A stretch of DNA of 64,000 nucleotides, taken from contig CAWDVW010000007.1 in NCBI GenBank assembly GCA_963805855.1, positions 288,001 through 352,000 on the forward strand. The letters run 5' to 3'. The position numbers were made by a program, and so were the translations under genes. This DNA comes from Candidatus Dadabacteria bacterium (GTDB taxonomy: Bacteria > Desulfobacterota_D > UBA1144 > Nemesobacterales > CSP1-2). Under the pieces are notes generated by a model that worked only from the letters and a program-made list of their open reading frames with translations, was not told where the DNA came from and made no database searches. Positions within the stretch are counted from its first letter, which is position 1, and every line of letters starts with the position of its first letter. This document shows positions 1 through 12,854 of this stretch, one piece after another.

Positions 1-49
1 GCGAAAACGTTAGCGATAAATAAATTAGAATTATAACAGCCTTATCTTC

Positions 50-550
50 TTAAATTAATCTGCTGTGTCTACTTATGCCGTAGAACCAATTTGTTGCTGT
101 ACTAAGGGGCATATCAATATCCAATGAAGATTTTATAGTTGCAGTTAATTTCCAAAGGCCTGGGATAAATATCTGATTACCTCTTCCTTCACTCAGAAAC
201 AGTGCGTATTCGCTTCTATTAGTTCCTTCAACTCTAAATAAAGGGTCACCCAAAAAAGGGATTTCATCAAACCACCAGAAATTATGCGTTGTTCTAAATC
301 GGTAAGTAAAAGTTCCGCTTGCTATAATTATTGGTCTGTACACAACTTCAAAAGCACCGCCGTCATCAACTGCCGCTCCATTGCCCCAAAAGTCCAAAGT
401 CCAGAAAATATTGTATGTTTCCCCTTCTGGAAACCCATCGATTGTTGTATGAATTGCGTTAAATTGTATACTGTCCCCTGGATAGAAATAATTTTTTCTC
501 GTATTTGAACCTTTTGGACTCGTATAAATATCGATTACACTTGGTCGCAT
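50..550 (-). CDS. hypothetical protein (166 aa)
   Basis: ATG-started ORF directly downstream of 580-777 on the same strand; no recognisable family. Confidence 0.6.
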   Translation of the reverse strand: MRPSVIDIYTSPKGSNTRKNYFYPGDSIQFNAIHTTIDGFPEGETYNIFWTLDFWGNGAAVDDGGAFEVVYRPIIIASGTFTYRFRTTHNFWWFDEIPFLGDPLFRVEGTNRSEYALFLSEGRGNQIFIPGLWKLTATIKSSLDIDMPLSTATNWFYGISRHSRLI

Positions 551-579
551 TTCTATTCACATCCTCAATCTAATCCTGA

Positions 580-777
580 TTATTTTTTCTTGCCTAATGG
601 CTTCCACACTCGAGTCCTTCGAGAATCATGTTCAATTATTTCGGATAGGAGTTTCTTATCACAGATTTCTACTTCTTCTTGACCAAAACCTGAATTAGGA
701 TTGTTTTTGCAGAACTCACTTAAGTCAATAACTTCTTTTAATAGGAATCCTGGCTGCTTATTTTTTTTCTCCTTCAT
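580..777 (-). CDS. small hypothetical protein (65 aa)
   Basis: Strong RBS AGGAGGAG (minus strand, ~790-797) upstream of ATG. Confidence 0.55.
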   Translation of the reverse strand: MKEKKNKQPGFLLKEVIDLSEFCKNNPNSGFGQEEVEICDKKLLSEIIEHDSRRTRVWKPLGKKK

Positions 778-977
778 CTATTATTTTATCTCCTCCTAGG
801 ATGTAGTCTTAGTATTGTCCAGTATAAATCAGGCAATAGTTAAAAGTCAATGCACGTGATTTTCTGAGGTTAGGGTGCCTAAGACACGAATTTATTAGGT
901 ATGAGCAAAACGGCAAATACGCTATCTTTGGCCAAAGATTAACTAGTAGTGAAAACCCTTGTGATGTTGTCTGTCAG

Positions 978-1160
978 GTGAGACATTACCAAGTACAACT
1001 AGGCTCACCGCTGAAGAAATTAATTATCACATTAGTCGTTGCTATTTCACTCGCTATGGGAGGTATTGTTTATAACGCTTCCGCTTGCGGTGGCAAGGAT
1101 AAAGGAGCTACCACGGAAGATACAGGTACCGTTGGCTCGGGCGACCAAGCTGAATCCTGA
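978..1160 (+). CDS. small secreted protein; natural N-terminus probably at 1011 (CTG-KKLII...)
   Basis: KKLIITLVVAISLAMGGIVYNASA resembles a signal peptide; followed by a terminator hairpin. Confidence 0.5.
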   Translation: MRHYQVQLGSPLKKLIITLVVAISLAMGGIVYNASACGGKDKGATTEDTGTVGSGDQAES

Positions 1161-1201
1161 TAAGTGCGTGTACTGAATCAAAAGCAATCCATTCTATTAA
1201 T

Positions 1202-1235
1202 AAAAGCCCTAGATTTTGTGATGCTAGGGCTTTTT
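1202..1235. terminator. intrinsic, probably bidirectional terminator
   Basis: AAAAGCCCTAG...CTAGGGCTTTTT inverted repeat with A and T tracts. Confidence 0.7.
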
Positions 1236-1494
1236 AGTATTTAGCTATAATAGCCACGATTTCACCAATCAGGGGGTGTGAGATGAGCTAGGAATCTGTC
1301 TATTCCCTGAAGACATAATACCACTTTCCGCACTAAAGTATGGGTGCTAAGCCATAGAAAACCCCAGTAAGCGCACAATTTCTAGGGATTTTTGTAAGAG
1401 GATTTGGGGAACAGCCAGTTGATTTTCGACCCCTCTTAGTTCAAAATCTACTTACAAGGAAGTAGTGAGAAGAGAGAAATAAAGTAAAGGCGTA

Positions 1495-1908
1495 ATGAGA
1501 CATAATTTAACTAAAGCAATTGCTTCGGCTGTAACTTTAATCCTGATATTTGCTTTTCTTGTAAGTTGTGACGATGACGATGGGGAATGTAATTTTGACT
1601 TTGACGATATTCTAAACGGCTCTACGAGACCATCACAGACATCCGAATGGGATTGCGTAGGAGATGGGGAGGTATTTTCTGTTGCTTTCTTTGAGAACGA
1701 AACAGGGTTTGACAGTGATTTGGGGGTCTTTACATGGGAGAAGAACGGTTGTAGGAGTCTAGTCTTCTTTTCAGGTTTTGGCGTGGGAGAAATATTTGAC
1801 CTCCAAGGTTCAATTGATTCAGGCATTATCAGTTTTGCTCAGACTATAGATAGAGATTTTTTTGATGTCGCATGTGAGTTGGATACAACTCCAGAAGATA
1901 CAATCTGA
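1495..1908 (+). CDS. putative acidic lipoprotein
   Basis: Hydrophobic signal followed by lipobox LVSC; D-rich mature N-terminus. Confidence 0.7.
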   Translation: MRHNLTKAIASAVTLILIFAFLVSCDDDDGECNFDFDDILNGSTRPSQTSEWDCVGDGEVFSVAFFENETGFDSDLGVFTWEKNGCRSLVFFSGFGVGEIFDLQGSIDSGIISFAQTIDRDFFDVACELDTTPEDTI

Positions 1909-2055
1909 GCCTTCTATATAAGTTCGAGCAATAATCAATAACCTATCTGTTAAGTTTGCAATAAAAGCATACCCTCATATTAGTGATTGGTAATCAAAAA
2001 GCTATCTGAAAATGCCTGTCACGTGAAGTATTGGCAACTACAACCATGCTCACAC

Positions 2056-2513
2056 CTAGAGAATAAGTTTGGGCTTCTCGGCGTTACTAAAGCTTCCTGA
2101 AGTATCCTTCCCTACAGGAACAGCCCCTAGAACTTGGACATATTTTGTTTGGTAACTCTCTGCTCCCAAGCCAATAGGCATTCCGCCTTTTAGATAGGTG
2201 TTCTTACTATGAGGAGGAATTGTGATGGGAAGGACAGCAGTGGTACTGCTTACTTGTTGGCCAGCGTTCTTATATGAAGTGGAGTAGTAGTTGAGTTTTA
2301 TTACAATGTCTTTATAAGCTATGTCTGCTGTATTCTCAATCGTAACATTACTTATCATAGCTACCCGCAAGCAACAAAATAAGACCAGTCAGTAACTTTA
2401 ATGTACCACTCGGGATGTTGTTTCATTGAAATGGTGGGGGCTGATTCTTGAGCTTTGGCAAGCGGAGAAAATAGGACTAGTAAGATAAATAATTGCGTGA
2501 CTATGTATTTCAT
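2056..2513 (-). pseudogene. secreted protein split by a frameshift near 2365
   Basis: MKYIVTQLFILLVLFSPLAKA signal peptide (ATG 2513) in one frame; beta-rich continuation RVAMISNVTIENTADIAYKDI in the adjacent frame. Confidence 0.6.
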
Positions 2514-2711
2514 ATTTGCGTTCTCAAATCTGATATACTTATGATTAGTATTATACACTAGCCCAGACAACGTCTTTAATGCTTATCGACTTTATTCTTT
2601 CTAACTCCATTAGATTTTTGAATGATTTAGTATTATATTTCGACAAAGCTTTTAGTGGGGAGAGGCATATGGAAGCTTACAATTTAAGATTTGAAAAGTA
2701 TAATTTTGTTT

Positions 2712-3056
2712 ATGTATACCATCAACCGCTCAATCGCAATAATAAAACCAAGGCAACCGTTTGTTGATTGGGCAAATCAATTGCCCGATGCCGATTGGAA
2801 AGTCTCTTTGGAAAATTTCAAGACTGATTGTCTCGCCATCTTAATACCTGAGTATGATACAGATGAAGAGGCTAGAGGATACATTAATGAGATATATGAA
2901 GATATTTTTATCGAAGAACTTTTCGGATGGTGTACTGAAGAGTCATGGTTTCCACAGGATAGGACTGATGAAATGTTCTGGCGATGGTTTGAGGTAGAGT
3001 TGCATTCAATTGTTATGGATACATCTACGGAACCAATATATAAAGAGGAATTGTAA
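2712..3056 (+). CDS. conserved hypothetical protein
   Basis: MYTINRSIAIIKPRQPFVDW...IFIEELFGWCTEESWFPQDRT...FWRWFEVE resembles a widespread uncharacterised family; ATG 2712 preferred over TTG 2691. Confidence 0.7.
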   Translation: MYTINRSIAIIKPRQPFVDWANQLPDADWKVSLENFKTDCLAILIPEYDTDEEARGYINEIYEDIFIEELFGWCTEESWFPQDRTDEMFWRWFEVELHSIVMDTSTEPIYKEEL

Positions 3057-3176
3057 ACATCATTTTGGAGTGTCCCCCTTTTGTCGAGTTCGGTTTAAAG
3101 TGGATTATAAAGAATCTAGCCAAGTCGATTCGAGATGATGGCAAACTCTAATGTGTATTAAACAACCCTCGCCGAA

Positions 3177-3374
3177 TTATTTCTTCTCTTCCAATATAAA
3201 TGCCACAGTCTGGAGTTTTATTTTCCCGATCTCAAAAATGAACGTGTCACTTGCGAAGGGGATTTTCTACCCATCTGATTCCGCATTCCAGAAAAGATAG
3301 GCGATATTGCCTTCCACCACCTTCTCTACGAGCTCAAAGTCTGAGCCCTGAGGGAGTATATTTTGGGTCAGTAA
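3177..3374 (-). pseudogene. SnoaL/NTF2-like protein, C-terminal remnant
   Basis: Manual translation QGSDFELVEKVVEGNIAYLFWNAESDG*KIPFASDTFIFEIGKIKLQTVAF; internal TAG at 3267-3269; no start codon. Confidence 0.55.
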
Positions 3375-3468
3375 CTAGTTATTCAAAACACAGCGGCGAA
3401 GAGGAGCAAAAACAAAAATAATTCATTTATTCATGCCTGACCCCGGAGTTTATTTTCCTGTGATCATT

Positions 3469-3933
3469 TTACACAGAAAATCCAACTCTTCCGTAACAGC
3501 TATTACCAAATCTGTCTTTGTGAGGATTTAGCTTGGTAGTATACTTCTTTCTCCTAAACCTCTTTCCGCAATATCTGCATTCTATTTGATAGTCGCTTAT
3601 AGAATCCCTAAATGTAGTTCCTCTACGTCTTCGTTGACTCTCAAAACGAGAGACAGTTTCAGATCCCCCGGCTTTTGCTATCTCTACTCTGTAACGTGGG
3701 CTAAAGGACTGCTCCGTGTTTTCGATCTCTTGAACCTTTTCAGATACAAATAATTTCAATCCTGCTCCCGAAACCCCTCCAACTGTGTCATACGCATAAA
3801 GGTATTCCTTCGCTACACCATCTTTACGAACCTTGAAAACCAACTCATAAGGTTCAACTAATCGCTCAACACCACTGTATTTTAGTTTGAGAACTGTAAG
3901 TGAATCGGCAGCCTTGAGAATCGGATTTCTCAA
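3469..3933 (-). CDS. WYL-like domain plus C-terminal Zn finger; probably the C-terminal part of the upstream NTase
   Basis: YSGVERLVEPYEL...EYLYAYD...LKLFVSEKVQEIE..F.PR WYL-like pattern; CRYC...H...C. Confidence 0.7.
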   Translation of the reverse strand: MRNPILKAADSLTVLKLKYSGVERLVEPYELVFKVRKDGVAKEYLYAYDTVGGVSGAGLKLFVSEKVQEIENTEQSFSPRYRVEIAKAGGSETVSRFESQRRRRGTTFRDSISDYQIECRYCGKRFRRKKYTTKLNPHKDRFGNSCYGRVGFSV

Positions 3934-4817
3934 TGCAGAAGGGAAGAACCTTCGATTAAATTCACGTGTGGGATTTCTCCCGGTATCAACTCATCAACCA
4001 GTTTAAGAAAACTTGCTTTTGCTTTCTTGAAGTCAAAAAATGTTGATACCGGACATGAAATGTGTTTTGTCCAAAAGTGGCTCAGTGTCTCCAACGGTAA
4101 GTCGATAAAAAGTCCTTTCGCTACCGACGGATTGGAACCAAAGATCGTTATCCGAAAAAATGTTGATATCAAGGCCATTCTATCAATGTATAGGGCTGGC
4201 TCAACGATTGTAGCATATACTAGGTCGAAAAGGTCTCCGATGTGCTTTCTTTGCAATAGGCATCGCATTTTCGTAGCGTATATCTCTTCAAGCTGAACGC
4301 ACCGAATAGTAGAAGCACAATCGTCTGAATCTGAGTATGGATGAATGAGTTTTCTTTCTTGCACCGGAAGATACAAGCGGTCGAACTGTGTGACATCAAG
4401 CCGTACTCCTATAATAATTTCGCTCTCCGCTCCATAAAAATTTCTGAAATATAGTCGTGCTTCGGAAATATCCTTTTCTGAATCAGCAAGCTTTTTCTTA
4501 TCGACTCTTGTTTTAGATGTGTCAAAGTAAACTCCAGATCGCTTATGGATGCCTTCGCAAACAGTGTTTAGTTCCCTGCCTAATTCCTCGTGCGATATCC
4601 CTTGTGAAGTACTAAAATCTAAGTCTCTTGAGTATCGAGAGTTTTCAAAGTAGGCTTTGCGAAGAGCATTGCATCCTTTTAGAACCACCCTGTTCGCAAG
4701 ATTGCTCGATTGATAGAGTAGAGATAGCAACCAGCCATGTACGTAATCTCTTTGTACATGAGATGGATGGACGCGTAACATCCCCGCCATCCTATCGATT
4801 TCAGATTGATTAATCAT
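3930..4817 (-). CDS. AbiEii/AbiGii-family nucleotidyltransferase
   Basis: VQRDYVHGWLL, VLKGCNALRKAYF, RYSRDLDFS, EIYATKMRCLLQR, DLFDL motifs. Confidence 0.85.
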   Translation of the reverse strand: MINQSEIDRMAGMLRVHPSHVQRDYVHGWLLSLLYQSSNLANRVVLKGCNALRKAYFENSRYSRDLDFSTSQGISHEELGRELNTVCEGIHKRSGVYFDTSKTRVDKKKLADSEKDISEARLYFRNFYGAESEIIIGVRLDVTQFDRLYLPVQERKLIHPYSDSDDCASTIRCVQLEEIYATKMRCLLQRKHIGDLFDLVYATIVEPALYIDRMALISTFFRITIFGSNPSVAKGLFIDLPLETLSHFWTKHISCPVSTFFDFKKAKASFLKLVDELIPGEIPHVNLIEGSSLLH

Positions 4818-5033
4818 CCAATGATTTTAAATAACTAAGCTACCTAATGATACGGAAATATTTATTACAACAAGCCGTAAGTAACCTATAAAAACTATTT
4901 TTATTCTACCCAAATCAAGTAACATTTCAGAAATAGTCACATTTAATAAATTCTACAGTACCAGAGACATTTCTTTTACAACTGATAGACATTTGGGTAA
5001 AGCTTGCAACTTCTTTTCTAAAAAATTCTCGGG

Positions 5034-5057
5034 TTAAAGGGGACGCAACCCTTTAAG
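5034..5057 (+). repeat. left 24-bp REP-like terminal repeat
   Basis: TTAAAGGGGACGCAACCCTTTAAG; exact reverse complement of 5767-5790 and itself a hairpin. Confidence 0.9.
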
Positions 5058-5766
5058 CGACCTTGGTTTTCGCCCTTTGGCGTCCTTGCGGTCTGTATCG
5101 TAATATTCGCCCTGCCATCCTCTCTAATTTCTGAATAAAATCATCCGTACCACAGGGCAATCCTTTCTTTATGTTTCTCCTCAATACTTCCACTTTCTGT
5201 AAATCATCACCCTCAGTTAACCAGCTACTCCAGTTCTCAATCCCACTCAAACTCCTCTAACCACCTCGAACTCTGGCTAATATACTTATCTTCCTTTAAC
5301 TTACAATGACCTGCCGCACTTGACCATTTGTAGTCCTGAGCGCTTCTAACGATTCCCGCTCTCACGGGATTGCGCTCGACGTAACGGACTGCTGTCCAGG
5401 TATACGATTCATCCAGCGGACTTGAGAAAAAACGCCCTTGCCATAAGATGTCCATCCCATCCGCGCTCGCGATTAATTCTCTGCGCATATCTCATATGAA
5501 GTGGTCTTAAGACCCTATGTAGACTTTCTTCTTTCAACGGAACCGCGACTAAGTGTACATGATTGGTCATTAGACAATAGGCTAGGATTTCAATTTTATG
5601 CTTGTCACCGTACTCTTTAAGCCAAGCGAGATAGCAGATGCGATCCTCGTCATTAAAAAAGACAGTCTCACGCCTGTTTCCGCGTTGAGTGATATGGTGT
5701 GGTAAGTCAGCAAATACGGTTCTTGCAACCCTAGGCATTTACATAAAGTTTAGCACCATAAATACC

Positions 5767-5790
5767 CTTAAAGGGTTGCGTCCCCTTTAA
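5767..5790 (-). repeat. right 24-bp REP-like terminal repeat
   Basis: CTTAAAGGGTTGCGTCCCCTTTAA. Confidence 0.9.
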
Positions 5791-5842
5791 ACCTAGCATA
5801 TCAGAACAAGTGAAACGTATTTCCTTTTTGAAAACTGACTGA

Positions 5843-5872
5843 TTGACAAGCAATACAAATTTATGATAGAGT
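5843..5872 (+). promoter_or_regulatory. possible sigma70 promoter
   Basis: TTGACA at 5843, 18-bp spacer, TGnTAGAGT extended -10. Confidence 0.35.
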
Positions 5873-6208
5873 AAGGGTTAGAGAGGAAGGGGTGGGTAAT
5901 AGGGGAATGTGCCGGGTGAGACGAAAGATTAAGTACCGAAGTTTGGTAACTTTCCAAGACAAAACACCTACTGCTGGGCCAGCCCTTCTATATCCCATAA
6001 GGCTCAAATTATATTTCGAAATTGACCTATCAAATATACTGAAACGTAGGGTGATATCCTATGATTGTATCAAATCCAATTTTATAGAGAATGGTCTTCA
6101 AGTTAAGGGTGTCATAGCCAGAAACACTAATTTGAAAGTAGAGAACATAGACGCACGTTTCCGGCAGGTACCTTCATTTTGACGATTACTAAACAATAGG
6201 AGGAAATT

Positions 6209-7130
6209 ATGAAATATATTTTAATACTTATAAGCGCATTGTTTGTATTTATGATTTTCACTAAAAATTCTTATAGTCAATGTGCGAGTGATGCCGATTG
6301 TGATGATGGCGCTTTTTGTGATGGAATGGAGTTATGCCTTTTAAACATTTGTAGTCCAGGTACCGATCCCGTCTTCCTGGACAAGTCTGTAATGGAGTTA
6401 TGCCTTTTAAACATTTGTAGTCCAGGTACCGATCCCTGTCTTCCTGGACAAGTCTGTGACGATGTAGCTGATATATGTTTTACTCCTTGTCATGATAACG
6501 ATGGTGATGGATTTGAGGATTCGGCCTGCGGAGGTGTCGACTGTGACGATAGTGATGGTGATAGATTTCCTGGGAACCCTGAAGTTTGCGACCCAGAAGA
6601 TCATGATGAAGATTGTGATCCTTCGACATTTGGGGAGAGAGACACTGATGGTGATGGCTTTTTTGATGCAACATGTTGTAATGATGATGGTACCGGTGCT
6701 ACTAATTGTGGTAATGATTGCGATGACTCAAGGGCTAGCACACATCCAATAGCAAATGATGTATGTAATGGTTTAGATGATGATTGTGATGGTAATATAG
6801 ATGATGAGACAACCGTTAGTCAGTATGTCGATTCAGACATGGACGGCTACGGTGATCCTAGTTCACTACCACAATTTATATGTCCAGACACAGCGGGATA
6901 CTCACCTCTTGATAATGACTGTGATGATACAAACCCGGCGATAACGCCCTGGCACTTTTATATGTCATCCAAATGAGAATGGACAAGGCGGACCTTTTGG
7001 TAATAATGGTGTTTTGAAATGTAATTCAGAAGGAATATTTGAACCATCTGTGTGTCCCGAGGAAAAAAGTGTTTGTGTTACGCAACCTAATAGTACTGGA
7101 GTTTGTCAAGTTAAGAATATAAATAATTAG
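6209..7130 (+). CDS. secreted Cys/Asp-rich protein with putative metal-binding repeats (DCDD...PG..EVCD type); frameshift near 6950
   Basis: RBS AGGAGG; signal peptide; repeated DxDGDG and DCDD motifs; Cys-rich reading continues in another frame (GTFICHPNENG...VCQVKNINN*) to TAG 7128-7130. Confidence 0.75.
6325..6457 (+). repeat. intragenic tandem duplication (66 + 67 bp)
   Basis: 6325-6390 and 6391-6457 identical except for one T missing from copy 1. Confidence 0.9.
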
Positions 7131-7142
7131 AAATAAATTAAA

Positions 7143-7162
7143 GGGGAGATTAATTTCTCCCC
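7143..7162 (+). terminator. stem-loop after the Cys-rich gene
   Basis: GGGGAGA-TTAATT-TCTCCCC. Confidence 0.55.
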
Positions 7163-7417
7163 CATTAAAACGAAAACCCCTTTACAGGGTCAATGCCCAA
7201 AATCCCCACAGCAATGACCTCATGTATACCCTTTCCAATGTCTGTGTGAACAATGAGACACTAGTACAATAACACCGCACTGGCTGTGGTCTGTGCATTG
7301 GTTTACATTGTCAGTGTCATAGGGCTATGTTACAAAGGTAAAAAAAGCACTGACATTGTGATCAGTGCTTGGTGGCTAATGTGTGTCATTAATTACTCTT
7401 TAATACAATCAGCCAAC

Positions 7418-7546
7418 TCAGAAATGAGTTGAGCGGAAATCCCAGACATCTGATGAAGCAGGGTACTTTGACCTTTTGAGGCAGAGCCAACGATATGCGT
7501 CTTTAAAGAGATGATCCAGGCGGGAGTTTGAAATGATGTTACTCAT
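7418..7546 (-). pseudogene. N-terminal remnant resembling a bacterial reverse transcriptase family
   Basis: MSNIISNSRLDHLFKDAYRWLCLKRSKYPASSDVWDFRSTHF*; AYxWLCxxRxxxPxxxDVWxxR pattern recalled from RT N-termini. Confidence 0.45.
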
Positions 7547-7900
7547 CAGGGTTAGTCTGTTGGTTGTGAGTGCGTCTTGAGGGAGATTTGGCAGTCATGT
7601 CGATGTGGTGGCTATAGAGAGAGCCGTGTAAAAAATCCAAAGGTGTTACTAATCCTATAAATCCTCTGTAGCTGTCAGTACATAATGAGCTTCCAAACTC
7701 TGAAACTAGATGCCCTGTTTCAACTAGATTGCTGTAGAAATAAATTATCTCTTTTTTCAAAAGATGTAAATGTATGTCTTAAATCATGGAATCTGCAATA
7801 TTCTATACCAGTTGTTTTAAGGCATTATCACTATAAAAATTGCAATTTCAGGTGGTTAGGATATGTCATTTTTTGTACGAAATATTTCCAGAAAAAGCCC

Positions 7901-7953
7901 TGAGGGGCAGTGCCCGAAAGGGCGTGCGGGTTCGACTCCCGCCTTCGGCACCA
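7901..7953 (+). other. 3' half of tRNA-Leu (probable att duplication at island end)
   Basis: Anticodon-loop remnant TGAGG, long variable arm GCCC-GAAA-GGGC, T-arm GCGGG-TTCGACT-CCCGC, acceptor 3' strand CTTCGGC-A-CCA; no 5' half or D-arm upstream. Confidence 0.85.
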
Positions 7954-8335
7954 TTTGGATATTATCCGTGTCACTGAGATTGTAATGAGCTGTATGTTTC
8001 GACATTTTGGTCGTAGGTCGTCTTATAAGTTTTCACATCTGGATTCATCTTCGGGATTTTTTTTAAGGCAATTCTCATAATCCCTCCTCGATTTTTCCAC
8101 ACTTTCTCGTGCATCGAGTAACTTCTGTCTTCTTTGTGACGAATCCAATGGTTTATCAACAAGCATCTCCTTACCTGTAGGATCCGTAATATCCACAACC
8201 TGCGAGAGGGATAATGATGATCGAGATCACAATTAATACTAGCCTTATCAATTGATTACTCCTGTTATGCTCGTAGTCTATATATACTAAATTCAGATCC
8301 TTTTCCAGCAAACGATTATTATTACTTTGCTTGAT

Positions 8336-8683
8336 TTATTTACGTTTTATCGGAAGATTCTTCGAATCGCGGTACCGGAATTCTGAACCAAATCTTTTTA
8401 TCATATCCGCAATCTCTTTGTTGTTTGTTGCTCGTAGATAGGTCTCGGCCAATCCGATAATTGTTTGGAAGTAATGAATATTAATCTCTTCTACGGTCAT
8501 TTCTTTGGTCCAGAGATCGATGCTTAAACTATTTTTTCTTTCGTGGTCCCAGATCGATACAAGCATCGCGCTGCAAGCTTTTGGCCCCTCTATATCAGAA
8601 TCCGTTGCATCCCAGTGAATTGACTCAGGGATGTTTTCTTCGTCTAACCGGACCTTGAATATTATCTCAGCTTCTTTTGACAT
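8336..8683 (-). CDS. gldC: GldC-like protein
   Basis: SKEAEIIFKVRLDEENIPESIHW.A.D...AMLVSIWD...LSIDLWTKEMTVEE...FQT...LAETY.RAT resembles the Bacteroidota GldC family; ATG 8683. Confidence 0.75.
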   Translation of the reverse strand: MSKEAEIIFKVRLDEENIPESIHWDATDSDIEGPKACSAMLVSIWDHERKNSLSIDLWTKEMTVEEINIHYFQTIIGLAETYLRATNNKEIADMIKRFGSEFRYRDSKNLPIKRK

Positions 8684-8854
8684 TTCTGACCTTTTACATG
8701 AATATTTAAAATTAGTATTTAACATAAACTATAATTGTACTTTTTGAAACACAAAACATTATTGTTGGAATACGGAATTCTATTGGATTTGCAATTCTGC
8801 TCGTCAATAAATCCCTGCGGTGTATCTATAATCTATTGATATAAAGAGTAGGAC

Positions 8855-9871
8855 GTGAATAACGCCTTTTCGGTTTATAAAGATTATGAAGTCATTGTTT
8901 TAGGTGCTGGTGTATCGGGCTTGACATGCGGCATTCAATTATTGGAAAGGCGATTCAGGGTGCAAATAATCTCCCATTGTGTGCCGCCGCATACCACCTC
9001 TGACATAGCCCCTGCCTATTGGAGCCCTTTTAGGGTATATCCGGGAGGAAGGGTCCTCAATGGGGTAAATATTCATATGAGAAATTTATCAATTTAACTG
9101 CAGAGAACGGTGCCGGAGTTTCTCTAGTTCAATTAATGGAGCTTTATGATCATGAGGTGGCTAATCCTTGGTGGGAAAAGGCGGTACCCGAGTGTGTTCG
9201 CGCAAGTCAGAGTGAGGTTCCTATGGGATTTAAAGATGCATGTCTTGTTGAGGTTCCGCTGATAGAGACTCCGATCTATATGAAATATCTTGTAAGGAGA
9301 TTCAATCACCTAGGGGGGGAAATCCATAAATTGGATAAAAGAATAACTTCAATAAAAGATTTGTATGCAGAGGATGTAGTAATTGTAAATTGCTCAGGTC
9401 TTGGAGCATATGAGGTTTGTGATGATAAAGATGTGTATCCTATTCGTGGACAAATAGTGAGAACAACAAACCCCGGGCTAAGACGTTGCTATCATTACGA
9501 GAGTGCCAAAAATGAAATAACCTACATAGTTCCCAGAACTGAGGATTGCATCCTGGGTGGAACAGCTGAGGAACATAATTGAACTACCGAAATAGAAAAA
9601 CAAACAGCAAAAAAAATACTTCATAATTGCCGGAAAATAGAACCCTCTCTTCATGATGCAAAGGTTTTCGAAAACAGGGTTGGATTGCGCCCCGGTCCGT
9701 AATGAAGTTCGACTCGAAATTGAGAAGGTGTCAAATACAAGTGCAGTAATCCATAATTATGGTCATGGAGGGGCTGGATTTTCATTATCATGGGGATGTG
9801 CGGAGGAGGTAGCCGGATTAGTTGAGCAATTTTCTACTGAAGAGATTAAATCAATTCGGGACAGATATTGA
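8855..9871 (+). pseudogene. D-amino acid oxidase (DAO), three lesions
   Basis: VLGAGVSG, VNCSGLGA, PIRGQ, ILGGT, GLRP, HNYGHGGAGFSLSWGCA; 1-bp deletion ~9060, in-frame TGA 9580-9582, 1-bp insertion ~9698. Confidence 0.85.
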
Positions 9872-9875
9872 GTGT

Positions 9876-11579
9876 TTATCCTTTAAACACTTTTTCATCG
9901 GCTTTGATAAAAGCATTTTTAAAGAGGTGTCTTTTTACTTTTCTTGTTGTCGTTTTTGGGAACTCTTCGAATCTAATTGCAAAATTGCTTATCCTTTTAT
10001 ATGCCTCAAGATCATGATTCATCCTTCTTATCTCGACCTTGATAAGCTCCCAAACATTTTCGTCTGATACTACCAGTCCCGTGGCTTCCAATCTACTACT
10101 CACCTGATCAAAGTCCGGATATATCAAGGCCTGAATGGTCTTGTCATCGGGGCTGAATACCAGCGCTTCTTCAATGTAGTTTGATTTTGTGAGCCTTTCC
10201 TCAAGCTCTTCAGGGGATAAGTTTTTACCTCCGGGGGTTACTATCAGGAATTTTTTTCTACCGGTTATGTAGAGATATCCTTCATCGTCAAAGAATCCGA
10301 TATCTCCTGTATATAGCCACCCGTCTGGTGTCAGGACTTCACTCGTCGCATTTTCGTTCTTGTAGTAGCCCTTCATTATATTGGGGCCACTCACAACAAT
10401 CTCACCATTTCCATCATCGTCCATATCTCTTATTTCGACCTCATCACTTTCTATAATCATTCCAACGCTGTCGTTTTTTGGCTTTGACGGAGGGTTCACA
10501 CTTACAAGAGGAGAAGTCTCGGATAATCCATAGCCCTGAACGATCGGAAATCCAAATTGCTCAAGCCCTCTCGAGACCCAGGAGGGAAGAGATGCACCAC
10601 CACAAATTATTAATTTAATTTTTTCAAGTCCTAATCGTCTCTTTATCTTATTCCCGGCAATCTTTTTTGGTAGGGCTCTTATGAGAATCCCTTTAAGGCC
10701 TACAGTGCTGGAAATTTCTTTATCTATCCTAAGAAAGAGCTTTTCCAAAATCAGCGGGGCGCTTAACCACATGGTGGGAGATGCTACATATAAATCTTCA
10801 AGCATTTCTCTTGGCTTTACGCTTCTGGCATAGAACACACTTGATCCGTTATAGAAAGAGCCTAAAAGCCCACAAGTGCACTCGTAAGAATGATGCAGTG
10901 GGAGAACGGAGAAAGCCCTGTCATCGGGACTTAAGTCAAGAATTTTATACATGTCTTCTACGTTTGACATGACGTTTTTGTGTGTCAGCATCACGCCTTT
11001 TGGGTTACCGGTAGTCCCTGAGGTAAATAGTATTTCAGAAAGCTCCTGCTCCGAAATACTCTTCCTTTCAACGCCCCAAGAATACTTGCTATATATATCG
11101 TCGAAGGTGTCCATCATAATCATGTGTTTCAATCCTTCGAGTTCTTCAAGCATTGGTCGTACATTAGGCAGATAAGGGGCCGATAAAAAAATCGCCTTTG
11201 CTTCTGAATAGCCCAGGATGAACTTATGGCTTTCTATGGATGCTCTTGGATCGAGTGGAACGGCGGTTCCACCAATCCAGGATATTGTTAAGTACGATAT
11301 GCCCCATTCAGGCCTGTTCTCCCCCAGAATTGCGATTTTGTCGCCCTTACCGATACCTAAATCTTTTAGATGTCTGCCGATACGTTTTACATATTCCAGT
11401 ACCTCCCCGTAACTTAATTTATGTATATTGTTGTTTCTTGGCGTTAAATATGCTGTTTTGTCTCCGTACCTATCTACACTATTTTCGATCATTTCGGGTA
11501 TTGATTTGATTCCGTAAGGGCTTCTTACCGTGTGTATTTTTCTGATTGGCTTATTAAATTTCTTCATAATGAATGGCAA
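9876..11579 (-). CDS. long-chain fatty acid-CoA ligase (AMP-binding)
   Basis: FTSGTTGNPKG, QGYGLSET, TGD, GRKK motifs. Confidence 0.9.
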   Translation of the reverse strand: MPFIMKKFNKPIRKIHTVRSPYGIKSIPEMIENSVDRYGDKTAYLTPRNNNIHKLSYGEVLEYVKRIGRHLKDLGIGKGDKIAILGENRPEWGISYLTISWIGGTAVPLDPRASIESHKFILGYSEAKAIFLSAPYLPNVRPMLEELEGLKHMIMMDTFDDIYSKYSWGVERKSISEQELSEILFTSGTTGNPKGVMLTHKNVMSNVEDMYKILDLSPDDRAFSVLPLHHSYECTCGLLGSFYNGSSVFYARSVKPREMLEDLYVASPTMWLSAPLILEKLFLRIDKEISSTVGLKGILIRALPKKIAGNKIKRRLGLEKIKLIICGGASLPSWVSRGLEQFGFPIVQGYGLSETSPLVSVNPPSKPKNDSVGMIIESDEVEIRDMDDDGNGEIVVSGPNIMKGYYKNENATSEVLTPDGWLYTGDIGFFDDEGYLYITGRKKFLIVTPGGKNLSPEELEERLTKSNYIEEALVFSPDDKTIQALIYPDFDQVSSRLEATGLVVSDENVWELIKVEIRRMNHDLEAYKRISNFAIRFEEFPKTTTRKVKRHLFKNAFIKADEKVFKG

Positions 11580-11771
11580 GGCTATATAGAACCAGCATTT
11601 TTTTTAAATAACTTCCGAAGAAGGGTTTTTTAATAGCTGATTTTCAGATAATTAATAAAATCTTTGCATACGTTAATTATCATACTCCTCGGGCTAAGAG
11701 AATATTTATTAAATCTTAATCAAATAATCTTCGTTTGAGAAATAATCATACAGTGTTTAGAATAAGAGGAA

Positions 11772-12854
11772 ATGCCGCTATTCGCACTCATAATGGCAGG
11801 TGGGGAGGGAAAAAGATTTTGGCCTCTGAGCCGGAAGGACAAGCCCAAGCAGTTTCTCAGTCTGATTGGACGAAAATCACTCTTAAGCCAAACCGTTGAG
11901 AGGATTCTCCCATTAATTCCTATTCAAAATATATTTGTGGTCACCGTAGAACGTTATGTTGAAGAAACCCGCACGCATCTACCTGGATTGCCTGCCGAGA
12001 ACATTATCATCGAACCCGAAGGGAAGAATACGGGTCCCTGCATAGCGCTGGGTACTCTTAAGATAAAAAAAATCTCCCCCGATTCTACGATAGTTGTGCT
12101 ACCCGCCGATCATGGGATAGCTGACGATAAGAGTTTTAGAAATGTTATTGAATACGGGCAAAGCATAGCAAACACCATGCTTGCTTCTAACGATTACCCG
12201 CTTGTGACTCTTGGCGTTAAGCCTAGCAAGCCTGAAACAGGGTATGGGTATATAAAGGAATCGACCGAATTAATAGACTCGTCCGGGCGTTATAAAGCCA
12301 AGAGAATTTTGAAGTTTATTGAAAAACCAGATTTAAAAACGGCATCTGATCTGATAAATGAAGGTGGTTATTATTGGAATAGCGGTATATTCATTTGGAA
12401 GACTACGGCTATATTAAAGGAATTCTCTGTGATCCTTCCGGAGTGGTATAGCTATTTTGACCGTATTCTAGACTCTTTTGATAACGAAAATGGTAGCCTT
12501 CTGATTCAGGATTTCTATGGAAACATACAATCCGGCTCGATCGATAAGCTTGTACTTGAGAAGTCAGGAAATAGTGTTGTAATACCTATAGATTTTTCAT
12601 GGAGTGATGTTGGCACCTGGCAGGCCCTGGATGAGTTCCTTAGATCAAATGAAACGGAAAACATCGGCATCGGAAATTGCATTTCATTTGATTCCGCTTC
12701 TTGCCTCTTATTTGCGCAAAGCAGGTTGATTGCCACGGTGGGCGTCAAAAATCTGGTTATAGTAGAAACCGATGACGCAATCCTGGTCTTGGATAAGAAT
12801 AAGGCTCAGGATGTCAAAAGCTTGGTGGCGAAATTAGATATAAAAAACGTTTAA
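11772..12854 (+). CDS. manC: mannose-1-phosphate guanylyltransferase
   Basis: MAGGEGKRFWPLSR..PKQF, EPEGKNT, PETGYGYI, FIEKP, WNSG, WSDVG. Confidence 0.9.
   Translation: MPLFALIMAGGEGKRFWPLSRKDKPKQFLSLIGRKSLLSQTVERILPLIPIQNIFVVTVERYVEETRTHLPGLPAENIIIEPEGKNTGPCIALGTLKIKKISPDSTIVVLPADHGIADDKSFRNVIEYGQSIANTMLASNDYPLVTLGVKPSKPETGYGYIKESTELIDSSGRYKAKRILKFIEKPDLKTASDLINEGGYYWNSGIFIWKTTAILKEFSVILPEWYSYFDRILDSFDNENGSLLIQDFYGNIQSGSIDKLVLEKSGNSVVIPIDFSWSDVGTWQALDEFLRSNETENIGIGNCISFDSASCLLFAQSRLIATVGVKNLVIVETDDAILVLDKNKAQDVKSLVAKLDIKNV

Follow-up and report, generated by a model that had tools for sequence, protein, structure and literature searches.

A frameshift-interrupted AbiEii-type nucleotidyltransferase gene with a predicted WYL domain and zinc finger in a Candidatus Dadabacteria genome belongs to a widespread clade found without AbiEi

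To our knowledge, MenT and AbiEii nucleotidyltransferase (NTase) toxins are known only as members of two-gene toxin-antitoxin pairs. Here we describe a gene in which an AbiEii-type NTase domain is followed by a predicted WYL domain and zinc finger and which is interrupted by a frameshift. The gene lies in a 64,000-nucleotide stretch of a Candidatus Dadabacteria genome (assembly GCA_963805855.1, contig CAWDVW010000007.1, positions 288,001 to 352,000; hereafter, the window, with coordinates counted from its first letter). Passages of the published reports describe MenT NTases as extending the 3' ends of tRNA and thereby blocking translation (PMC10435456, PMC11541572, PMC11375011), and describe an antitoxin-induced auto-phosphorylation of MenT toxins at S78 or T39 (PMC11375011, PMC10435456, PMC11541572), which in MenT3 S78 blocks the active site (PMC11375011). 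The titles of Protein Data Bank (PDB) entries for solved WYL proteins describe a barrel that binds single-stranded nucleic acid and switches activity. A combination of the two domains has been recorded before: section 8 of Makarova et al. (2014, PMC4012209) names an "AbiGII-like nucleotidyltransferase (DUF1814)" among the combinations of WYL domains.

The two open reading frames (ORFs) at this locus, ORF1 and ORF2 (Table 1), are parts of one interrupted gene of the fused family. They overlap by 4 bases, which read TCAA on the plus strand and TTGA on the minus strand, and the frame of ORF2 remains open for 19 codons 5' of its TTG, reading VDTGRNPTREFNRRFFPSALRNP. Both features had been pointed out in a first-pass annotation made from the DNA sequence, which also predicted a single NTase-WYL-zinc-finger gene broken by a frameshift, a prediction that homologs and an in-frame allele now support. 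A profile built from 31 fused homologs matched ORF1 with 499 bits at profile positions 1 to 281 and the downstream frame with 235 bits at positions 281 to 462, and in an alignment with ten homologs the two frames tiled end to end. Because the profile is tiled by both frames, ORF1 and ORF2 are not a chance pair of reading frames. The gain of one base or the loss of two bases anywhere in about 3934 to 3993 would restore a single open frame.

ORF1 is predicted to contain a complete AbiEii/MenT-type NTase domain. It matched Pfam PF08843 with 79.2 bits (cut-off, 22.5) and PADLOC AbiEii model PDLC02304 at an E value of 7e-43 over residues 1 to 276. Residues R61, S63, D65, D67, K183, R190, D195, and D198, which are invariant in the homolog alignment, are all present in the window protein. 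Motif II aligns to RFSTDLDF of MenT4 (6y56) and to SRSTVDIDF of AbiGII (9hlo), and the KGG motif of the family also aligns to MenT4 and AbiGII. The fold was read from an AlphaFold2 model of a homolog, P0014, and not from ORF1 of the window. That model, made from a 31-sequence alignment, had a mean predicted local distance difference test (pLDDT) score of 85 and a predicted template modeling score of 0.78 and comprised an NTase domain (residues 1 to 280), a helix with five strands (293 to 371), a disordered segment (394 to 424), and a beta-rich C-terminal module (428 to 467). Its N-terminal domain retrieved MenT3/TglT, MenT4, and JHP933 (6j7o, 6y56, 6y5u, 4o8s) in a Foldseek search of the PDB, with E values of 6e-9 to 1.5e-7. 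S63 probably corresponds to S78 of MenT3, as judged by motif spacing and not by residue-level superposition.

The first-pass annotation also claimed a WYL fold for the C-terminal part and named its absence as grounds for dropping the claim; structure prediction bears out such a fold. An AlphaFold2 model of ORF2 from a 53-row alignment had a pLDDT of 87.5, and the top 14 entries retrieved with it by VIA-align were all WYL proteins (Z scores of 8.1 to 10.5; root mean square deviation, 1.6 to 2.3 A over 70 to 75 residues; 15 to 26% identity), with Sm/Hfq proteins ranked below them at Z scores of 7.7 or less. ORF2 matched the PADLOC WYL model at 3.6e-4, and the C-terminal domain of P0014 retrieved PafBC, DriD, CapW, and BrxR from the PDB with Foldseek at E values of 6e-4 to 2e-3. 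The WYL assignment stands because distant relatives of ORF2 exceed the Pfam WYL (PF13280) cut-off of 21.8 bits on the aligned region, as do P0239 (29.7 bits; itself a phmmer match to ORF2 at 7e-12), P0244 (30.2 bits), P0264 (23.7 bits), and the sister-clade proteins L037 to L040 described below (29.5 to 34 bits). The linker that follows the barrel differs in length among homologs, and beyond it the four putative zinc ligands, C119, C122, H138, and C146, show almost no variation or none across the homolog alignment. The finger scored 19.1 bits against Pfam zf-BED (PF02892), below the cut-off of 20.6 (E value, 0.0014). A complex prediction of ORF1 (residues 1 to 281) with ORF2 gave scores of 0.58, 0.10, and 0.00 (mark, 0.32) and weighs neither for nor against contact of the two parts.

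A full HMMER scan with ORF2 returned 359 cluster representatives at E values of 0.001 or less. Forty of these were picked for a Pfam scan, which found AbiEii in 22, TIR_2 in one (P0233), a DNA polymerase A fragment in one, and a run of zinc fingers in one; the remainder of the 40, many of which are fragments, had no Pfam match. P0233 (478 aa) carries TIR_2 at residues 104 to 198 (PADLOC PDC-S66, ThsB-like) and then the WYL module at residues 356 to 466. Occurrence of the module behind both NTase and TIR effectors fits a portable sensor module.

The family is widespread, and close homologs are single polypeptides. A search with ORF1 returned 724 proteins at E values of 0.001 or less, and among the 119 homologs listed, which were 49 to 70% identical, 91 had lengths of 440 to 473 aa; the shorter ones were mostly on short contigs. 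When each species was represented by one genome in a scan, 27 loci were found, and at all 27 the gene was a single ORF of 408 to 543 aa. These counts answer in the affirmative the question, raised in the first-pass annotation, of whether homologs are single polypeptides. The taxa at the 27 loci include Sedimenticola, Chloroflexota, Polyangiaceae, Planctomycetota, Acidobacteriota, Nocardioides, Kribbella, and Roseovarius, and the family has spread horizontally across many phyla. The gene was found in none of 2 genomes of the same genus and none of 14 genomes of the same family as the window's genome, and its absence from these close relatives points to horizontal acquisition in the window's lineage. 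The names borne by 90%-identical PurL and transposase proteins suggest that this lineage belongs to Thermodesulfobacteriota. A full-length member of the same clade (L008; 461 aa, 47% identical to P0014) was seen on a 3,528-bp contig labeled Promethearchaeota, which could represent either a transfer into archaea or a binning error.

No AbiEi gene accompanies this clade. AbiEi families were found in none of the 94 ORFs that flank the gene at the 27 loci (two ORFs on each side; Pfam E value of 0.001 or less, PADLOC E value of 1e-5 or less) and nowhere in the window, which bears out the first-pass annotation's claim that none lies upstream of the gene. Nor was a conserved ORF of 25 to 130 aa found within 500 nt of the gene; among 348 ORFs there was one weak antisense pair only. 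The AT-rich stretch upstream of the ATG, estimated at about 215 bp in the first-pass annotation, is slightly longer when measured (Table 1) and is followed, as claimed, by transposase sequence, here IS200-like Y1 fragments. A scan for promoters and terminators gave 4 promoter-like sites where 4.1 were expected and 0 terminators.

Table 1. Positions of the interrupted gene, its predicted domains and motifs, and the adjoining spacer in the window
Feature	Position	Strand	Description	Basis
Whole AbiEii(DUF1814)-WYL-zinc-finger gene	3469..4817	-	Interrupted by a frameshift	Frames tile onto fused homologs
ORF1	3930..4817	-	295 aa, ATG start; predicted NTase domain (residues 1-280) and 15-residue out-of-frame tail	
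ORF2	3469..3933	-	154 aa, TTG start; predicted WYL barrel and CCHC zinc finger	
Cys49 codon (TGC)	4671..4673	-	In NTase motif I; reads K-G-C (family, K-G-G)	Homolog alignment
NTase motif II	4617..4637	-	R61-Y-S63-R-D65-L-D67; putative catalytic DxD with Ser two residues earlier	Alignment
Frameshift site	3974..3976		T-run (A-run on coding strand), two bases more than in-frame allele	Contigs of X1, X2, and X4
WYL domain	3688..3933	-	Predicted N-terminal helix and five-stranded Sm-like barrel, ORF2 residues 1-82	AlphaFold2 model
Basic linker	3592..3687	-	ORF2 residues about 83-114	pLDDT 52-73; P0014 counterpart (394-424) below 50
CCHC zinc finger	3472..3591	-	Predicted, C-terminal; C119-x2-C122...H138...C146 of ORF2	pLDDT 96-97
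Spacer upstream of ATG	4818..5052		235 bp, 31% GC, AT-rich; without AbiEi ORF or conserved small ORF	

The in-frame form of the gene exists in nature. Contigs assembled from three salt-marsh metagenome runs, X1 (171 nt), X2 (841 nt), and X4 (156 nt), span the junction, and each has 2 letters fewer at 3974 and is otherwise identical to the window; contigs of a fourth run, X3, did not reach the junction. The T-run affected sits in GGGATTTCTCC. Its exact position was taken from these contigs and not from the profile scan, in which the score peaked when 2 nt were dropped anywhere in 3963 to 3978, narrowing the indel only to that range. At 3970 to 3980 the coding strand of the in-frame allele reads GGAGATCCC, which contains GATC; the window has GAAATC. 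Methylation of a GATC site might conceivably have contributed to a base-calling error here. After removal of the two bases the junction reads ...DELIPGDPTREFNRRFFPS, with LIPGDPTREF in the in-frame allele, and it matches the LIPG...FFPS pattern of the family with a spacing equal to that of the aligned homolog rows. P0272, a 448-aa protein that is encoded on a 2,075-bp contig and shares a 90% cluster with the window protein, consists of ORF1 residues 1 to 280, then Asp, and then the downstream frame to its end. The first-pass annotation had suggested that one extra base in a C-run near 3970 would join the frames; such a gain does give a single frame, but the natural 448-aa allele instead has two bases fewer, in the T-run a few bases away.

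The split could reflect a mutation at the strain level or else an error of assembly, and we regard the question of whether the frameshift is real as evenly balanced. If it is an assembly or consensus error, which has close to an even chance, then the organism carries an intact 448-aa gene with no decay beyond the G49C change discussed below. Every independent assembly, namely, the X1, X2, and X4 contigs and P0272, has the in-frame allele, and an exact sequence look-up found the split allele on record solely from the window's own contig of 727,604 bp. The assembly itself (3.11 Mb in 9 contigs) suggests long reads. However, assembly errors are not general, because long ORFs elsewhere in the window are intact: the rest of the window is without broken housekeeping genes, and ORFs of the size of rpoB and rpoC (1,368 and 1,361 aa) and PurL (739 aa) match those of relatives. 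A two-base gain at a single-base position is an atypical homopolymer miscall, which also counts against this explanation. Furthermore, two other genes nearby are broken, which speaks for a real mutation: the IS200-like transposase gene and a D-amino-acid oxidase gene (both described below). The latter has a TGG-to-TGA substitution besides its frameshifts; such a substitution cannot arise by an indel error and thus indicates true decay within this 6-kb stretch. Rare variants are dropped from Logan contigs, so the split allele could coexist unseen with the in-frame allele.

A second lesion is independent of the frame. Position 49 is G in 91 of 91 full-length homologs and C in the window, where the codon reads as the first-pass annotation claimed when it noted KGC for the usual KGG; G49C is unique to this lineage. 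It was also present in P0272 and in an X1 contig that covers 4504 to 4696 with 0 differences, and since it is common to the intact allele, G49C is a lineage trait that is not tied to the frameshift. Motif I of NTases is defined as h-G-[GS], to which the family as a whole conforms and from which the window copy and P0272 depart. Judging from its place in the NTP-binding G-G of motif I, the substitution may impair or abolish enzyme activity. Of 101 alignment columns with conservation of 95% or more across the 91 homologs, the read-through protein deviates in 4 (V44, C49, N126, and Y180); the homologs' own departures have a median of 1, and 13 of the 91 have four or more. Most likely, the gene in this genome is nonfunctional or weakened: the G49C change is certain, and the frameshift has about an even chance of being real. 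Whether this copy is decaying, as had been proposed, is therefore uncertain, because the frameshift is found only in this assembly and an intact allele is found in three runs and P0272, with KGC on the intact allele too.

We consider it probable that the locus represents a single gene from a widespread family, whose proteins have about 450 to 470 aa with NTase, WYL, linker, and zinc finger regions, that this gene is split here, and that it encodes a MenT-like toxin controlled in cis. By analogy with MenT toxins, the NTase would extend tRNA at its 3' end with added nucleotides and halt translation, and the translation block would lead to growth arrest or abortive infection. The WYL-zinc-finger module would restrain or target the NTase in cis, and binding of single-stranded nucleic acid to the WYL domain might release or activate the NTase, as in DriD, CapW, and PafBC. 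Auto-phosphorylation of Ser63 could, speculatively, serve as a cis-acting off-switch, which is plausible because the invariant Ser before the DxD sits at the inhibitory auto-phosphorylation site of MenT3. Both the defense function and the gating by nucleic acid are inferences. A more specific proposal treats the AbiEi-less clade as a self-contained system for abortive infection or growth arrest that needs a single protein: after loss of AbiEi, the WYL-zinc-finger module would have come to control the NTase, would keep it off, perhaps by favoring auto-phosphorylation of Ser63, and would release it on binding single-stranded phage or damaged DNA or RNA. We offer it tentatively, as possible but on the doubtful side.

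Several observations weigh against a cis-controlled toxin. Some come from a distant clade of the same architecture. PADLOC model PDLC02317 had full-length matches at 13 loci, which are spread over 12 genomes and belong to a single genus (g16) of the same order, with proteins about 29% identical to the window protein, and an AbiEi-like gene (265 to 273 aa) lies directly upstream at 9 of these 13 loci (L037, L040, L042 to L047, and L053). Because this clade keeps AbiEi, the WYL-zinc-finger module does not by itself stand in for an antitoxin. The 13 loci are kin of one genus and thus not independent, and AbiEi_4 scores in this clade reach 28.1 bits (cut-off, 25), with several below the cut-off. 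The C-terminal zinc finger is present in L037, L038, and L040 and absent from L042 and L043; L037 and L040 are the finger-bearing members among the nine AbiEi-paired loci. At L038, L039, L041, and L048 an upstream AbiEi ORF of 90 aa or more was not seen, so AbiEi may be lost repeatedly. Thus, one clade combines the NTase-WYL fusion with AbiEi, the window's clade has the fusion on its own, and the first-pass annotation's question of whether homologs lack AbiEi neighbors is answered in the affirmative for the close clade but not for the distant one.

There are further points against this reading. The tRNA substrate and the single-stranded DNA or RNA ligand would be transferred from relatives that are only 14 to 20% identical in Foldseek alignments. 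ORF2 of the window scored 13.2 bits against Pfam WYL, below the cut-off (E value, 0.09). Because the otherwise intact allele carries G49C as well, the enzyme of this lineage may lack activity regardless of the frame. Full-text searches, judged by titles and the openings of abstracts, yielded no experimental study of an AbiEii, DUF1814, or AbiGii fusion to WYL. Lastly, enrichment of defense genes beside the family is suggestive, but the statistics are weak: PADLOC matched 21 of the 94 flanking ORFs, in 13 of the 27 loci, compared with 3 of 37 ordinary ORFs of the window (Fisher p = 0.078), and some of the flanking matches were generic ATPases or desulfurases. The expectation that homologs would be enriched in defense islands thus held in part, in that the close clade often stands beside defense or mobile genes.

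An alternative to a phage defense role is that the family is a growth-arrest module triggered by stress or DNA damage, or an RNA-modifying enzyme, in which the WYL domain senses damage-derived single-stranded DNA as in DriD and PafBC. The nearest structural matches of the WYL domain include these damage-responsive, single-stranded-DNA-binding activators alongside the defense regulators CapW and BrxR, and passages of the literature describe MenT toxins as regulators of Mycobacterium tuberculosis growth and not of phage defense. Moreover, 14 of the 27 loci lacked a PADLOC match in the four flanking ORFs. However, the patchy horizontal distribution and the absence from close relatives are typical of defense islands, as are the frequent DISARM, TIR, Bil/E1-E2, OLD-type ATPase, DRT-associated, and integrase neighbors, and we therefore regard this alternative as unlikely, though deserving of attention. 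Neighbors vary by locus and include integrases, recombinases, DISARM genes (DrmD, DrmB, DrmC), PDC-M56A/B, PDC-S02 (YhcG nuclease), and PDC-S35/CAP12-type TIR proteins, as well as Bil/E1-E2-like genes, OLD-type ATPases, capP, an SbcB-like exonuclease of DRT systems, and a PIN-TPR protein. Strong matches were to DrmD (9e-197), PDC-M56A (6e-149), PDC-S02 (2e-131), RTasSbcB (2.5e-113), and PDC-S35 TIR (4.5e-74). In the window itself, PADLOC was run on a transposase fragment and five unassigned ORFs in 1 to 7000 and gave no match, and thus the neighborhood is not shown to be a defense island. No tRNA gene was found in 1 to 12000, and an island border linked to a tRNA is therefore not evident.

A functional split, in which ORF1 would be a free NTase toxin and ORF2 a WYL-zinc-finger regulator or antitoxin translated by coupling at TTGA, is improbable. 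The 4-base overlap is a classic arrangement of coupled genes; ORF1 retains the full NTase domain and ORF2 the full WYL domain, N-terminal helix, and zinc finger; and the representative library holds proteins of 141 to 166 aa that cover all of ORF2 (P0123, P0134, P0171, P0174, and P0223). However, these short proteins may be contig-end fragments, the fused form is present at 27 of 27 genome loci, and the TTG start of ORF2 is without an evident ribosome-binding site at the usual distance. The split and intact alleles differ by one 2-base indel and are otherwise identical, which indicates that the split is very recent. Programmed -1 ribosomal frameshifting, for which the required shift (-1, or +2) and the overlap of the frames by about 60 nt would be suitable, was rejected as very improbable because the junction lacks an X XXY YYZ slippery heptamer, no shift is needed at any of the 27 loci, and the allele also occurs, otherwise identical, in a form that lacks the two bases.

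Several other features lie near the gene. Directly upstream of the AT-rich spacer, an IS200-like Y1 transposase at 5056 to 5759 on the minus strand is in three frames with two frameshifts; its relatives are 162 to 234 aa long and 79 to 88% identical. The D-amino-acid oxidase pseudogene at 8855 to 9850 on the plus strand consists of frame segments 8855 to 9061, 9007 to 9696, and 9692 to 9850, separated by two frameshifts, and has its TGG-to-TGA change at 9580 to 9582; relatives are 332 aa long and about 89% identical (P0279). Just 3' of the stop of the interrupted gene, at about 3415 to 3444, is a short dispersed repeat of about 30 to 65 bp that occurs at 14 places in the genome with 78 to 100% identity. 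The repeat, at 3392 to 3448, was also matched by contigs with unrelated flanks in all four metagenome runs. It is possibly an element like the repetitive extragenic palindromic sequences or the miniature inverted-repeat transposable elements, perhaps linked to the Y1 transposase. An ORF at 6209 to 6976 on the plus strand encodes a Cys/Asp-rich, secreted-looking protein with a MopE-type metal-binding motif and an internal direct duplication (MELCLLNICSPGTDP twice), and it forms a single-member cluster.

For annotation, both ORFs should be labeled as one interrupted gene, and a pseudogene label hinges on a read-level check of the break. A widespread clade with a ligand-sensing domain in place of an antitoxin gene would be a simple model of cis control of a toxic NTase and would also inform which signal WYL domains read in defense. 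If the proposed mechanism is true, no earlier NTase toxin would have been known to be gated in cis by a nucleic acid sensor.

Compared with described systems, the window gene is not filed as a two-gene type IV toxin-antitoxin system of the AbiE or MenAT kind. As in AbiE (AbiEi plus AbiEii; COG5340 plus DUF1814/COG2253), Pfam and PADLOC identify an AbiEii NTase, here as the N-terminal domain, and the family has the KGG, S-x-D-x-D, and K...R...D motifs. Unlike AbiE, the clade is without AbiEi at 27 of 27 loci and has about 170 extra C-terminal residues (WYL and zinc finger), and motif I of the window copy is KGC. MenT1, MenT3 (TglT), and MenT4 provide the best structural matches of the NTase (6j7o, 6y5u, 6y56, 8xhr, 8an4; E values of 6e-9 to 2e-3), and the window family conserves a Ser two positions ahead of the DxD, where MenT3 has the auto-phosphorylated S78. 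In contrast to MenT, to which identity is 14 to 20%, the family has fused sensor domains and no MenA-type antitoxin, and its tRNA activity is only predicted. ORF1 and ORF2 match positions 1 to 200 and 319 to 392, respectively, of the 396 positions of PDLC02317. However, PDLC02317 members have AbiEi upstream at 9 of 13 loci and several are without the zinc finger, whereas the window's clade is solitary, with a zinc finger in all aligned sequences. DriD, PafBC, CapW, and BrxR share the predicted Sm-like WYL barrel of ORF2, but these are transcription factors with helix-turn-helix (HTH)-WYL-WCX architecture, and the WYL domain of the window gene follows an enzyme, lacks an HTH, and precedes a zinc finger. 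In the parts of the literature consulted, the NTase-WYL architecture has been known since 2014 but is uncharacterized, and neither the solitary zinc-finger clade nor the way it differs from the AbiEi-paired clade appears to have been reported before.

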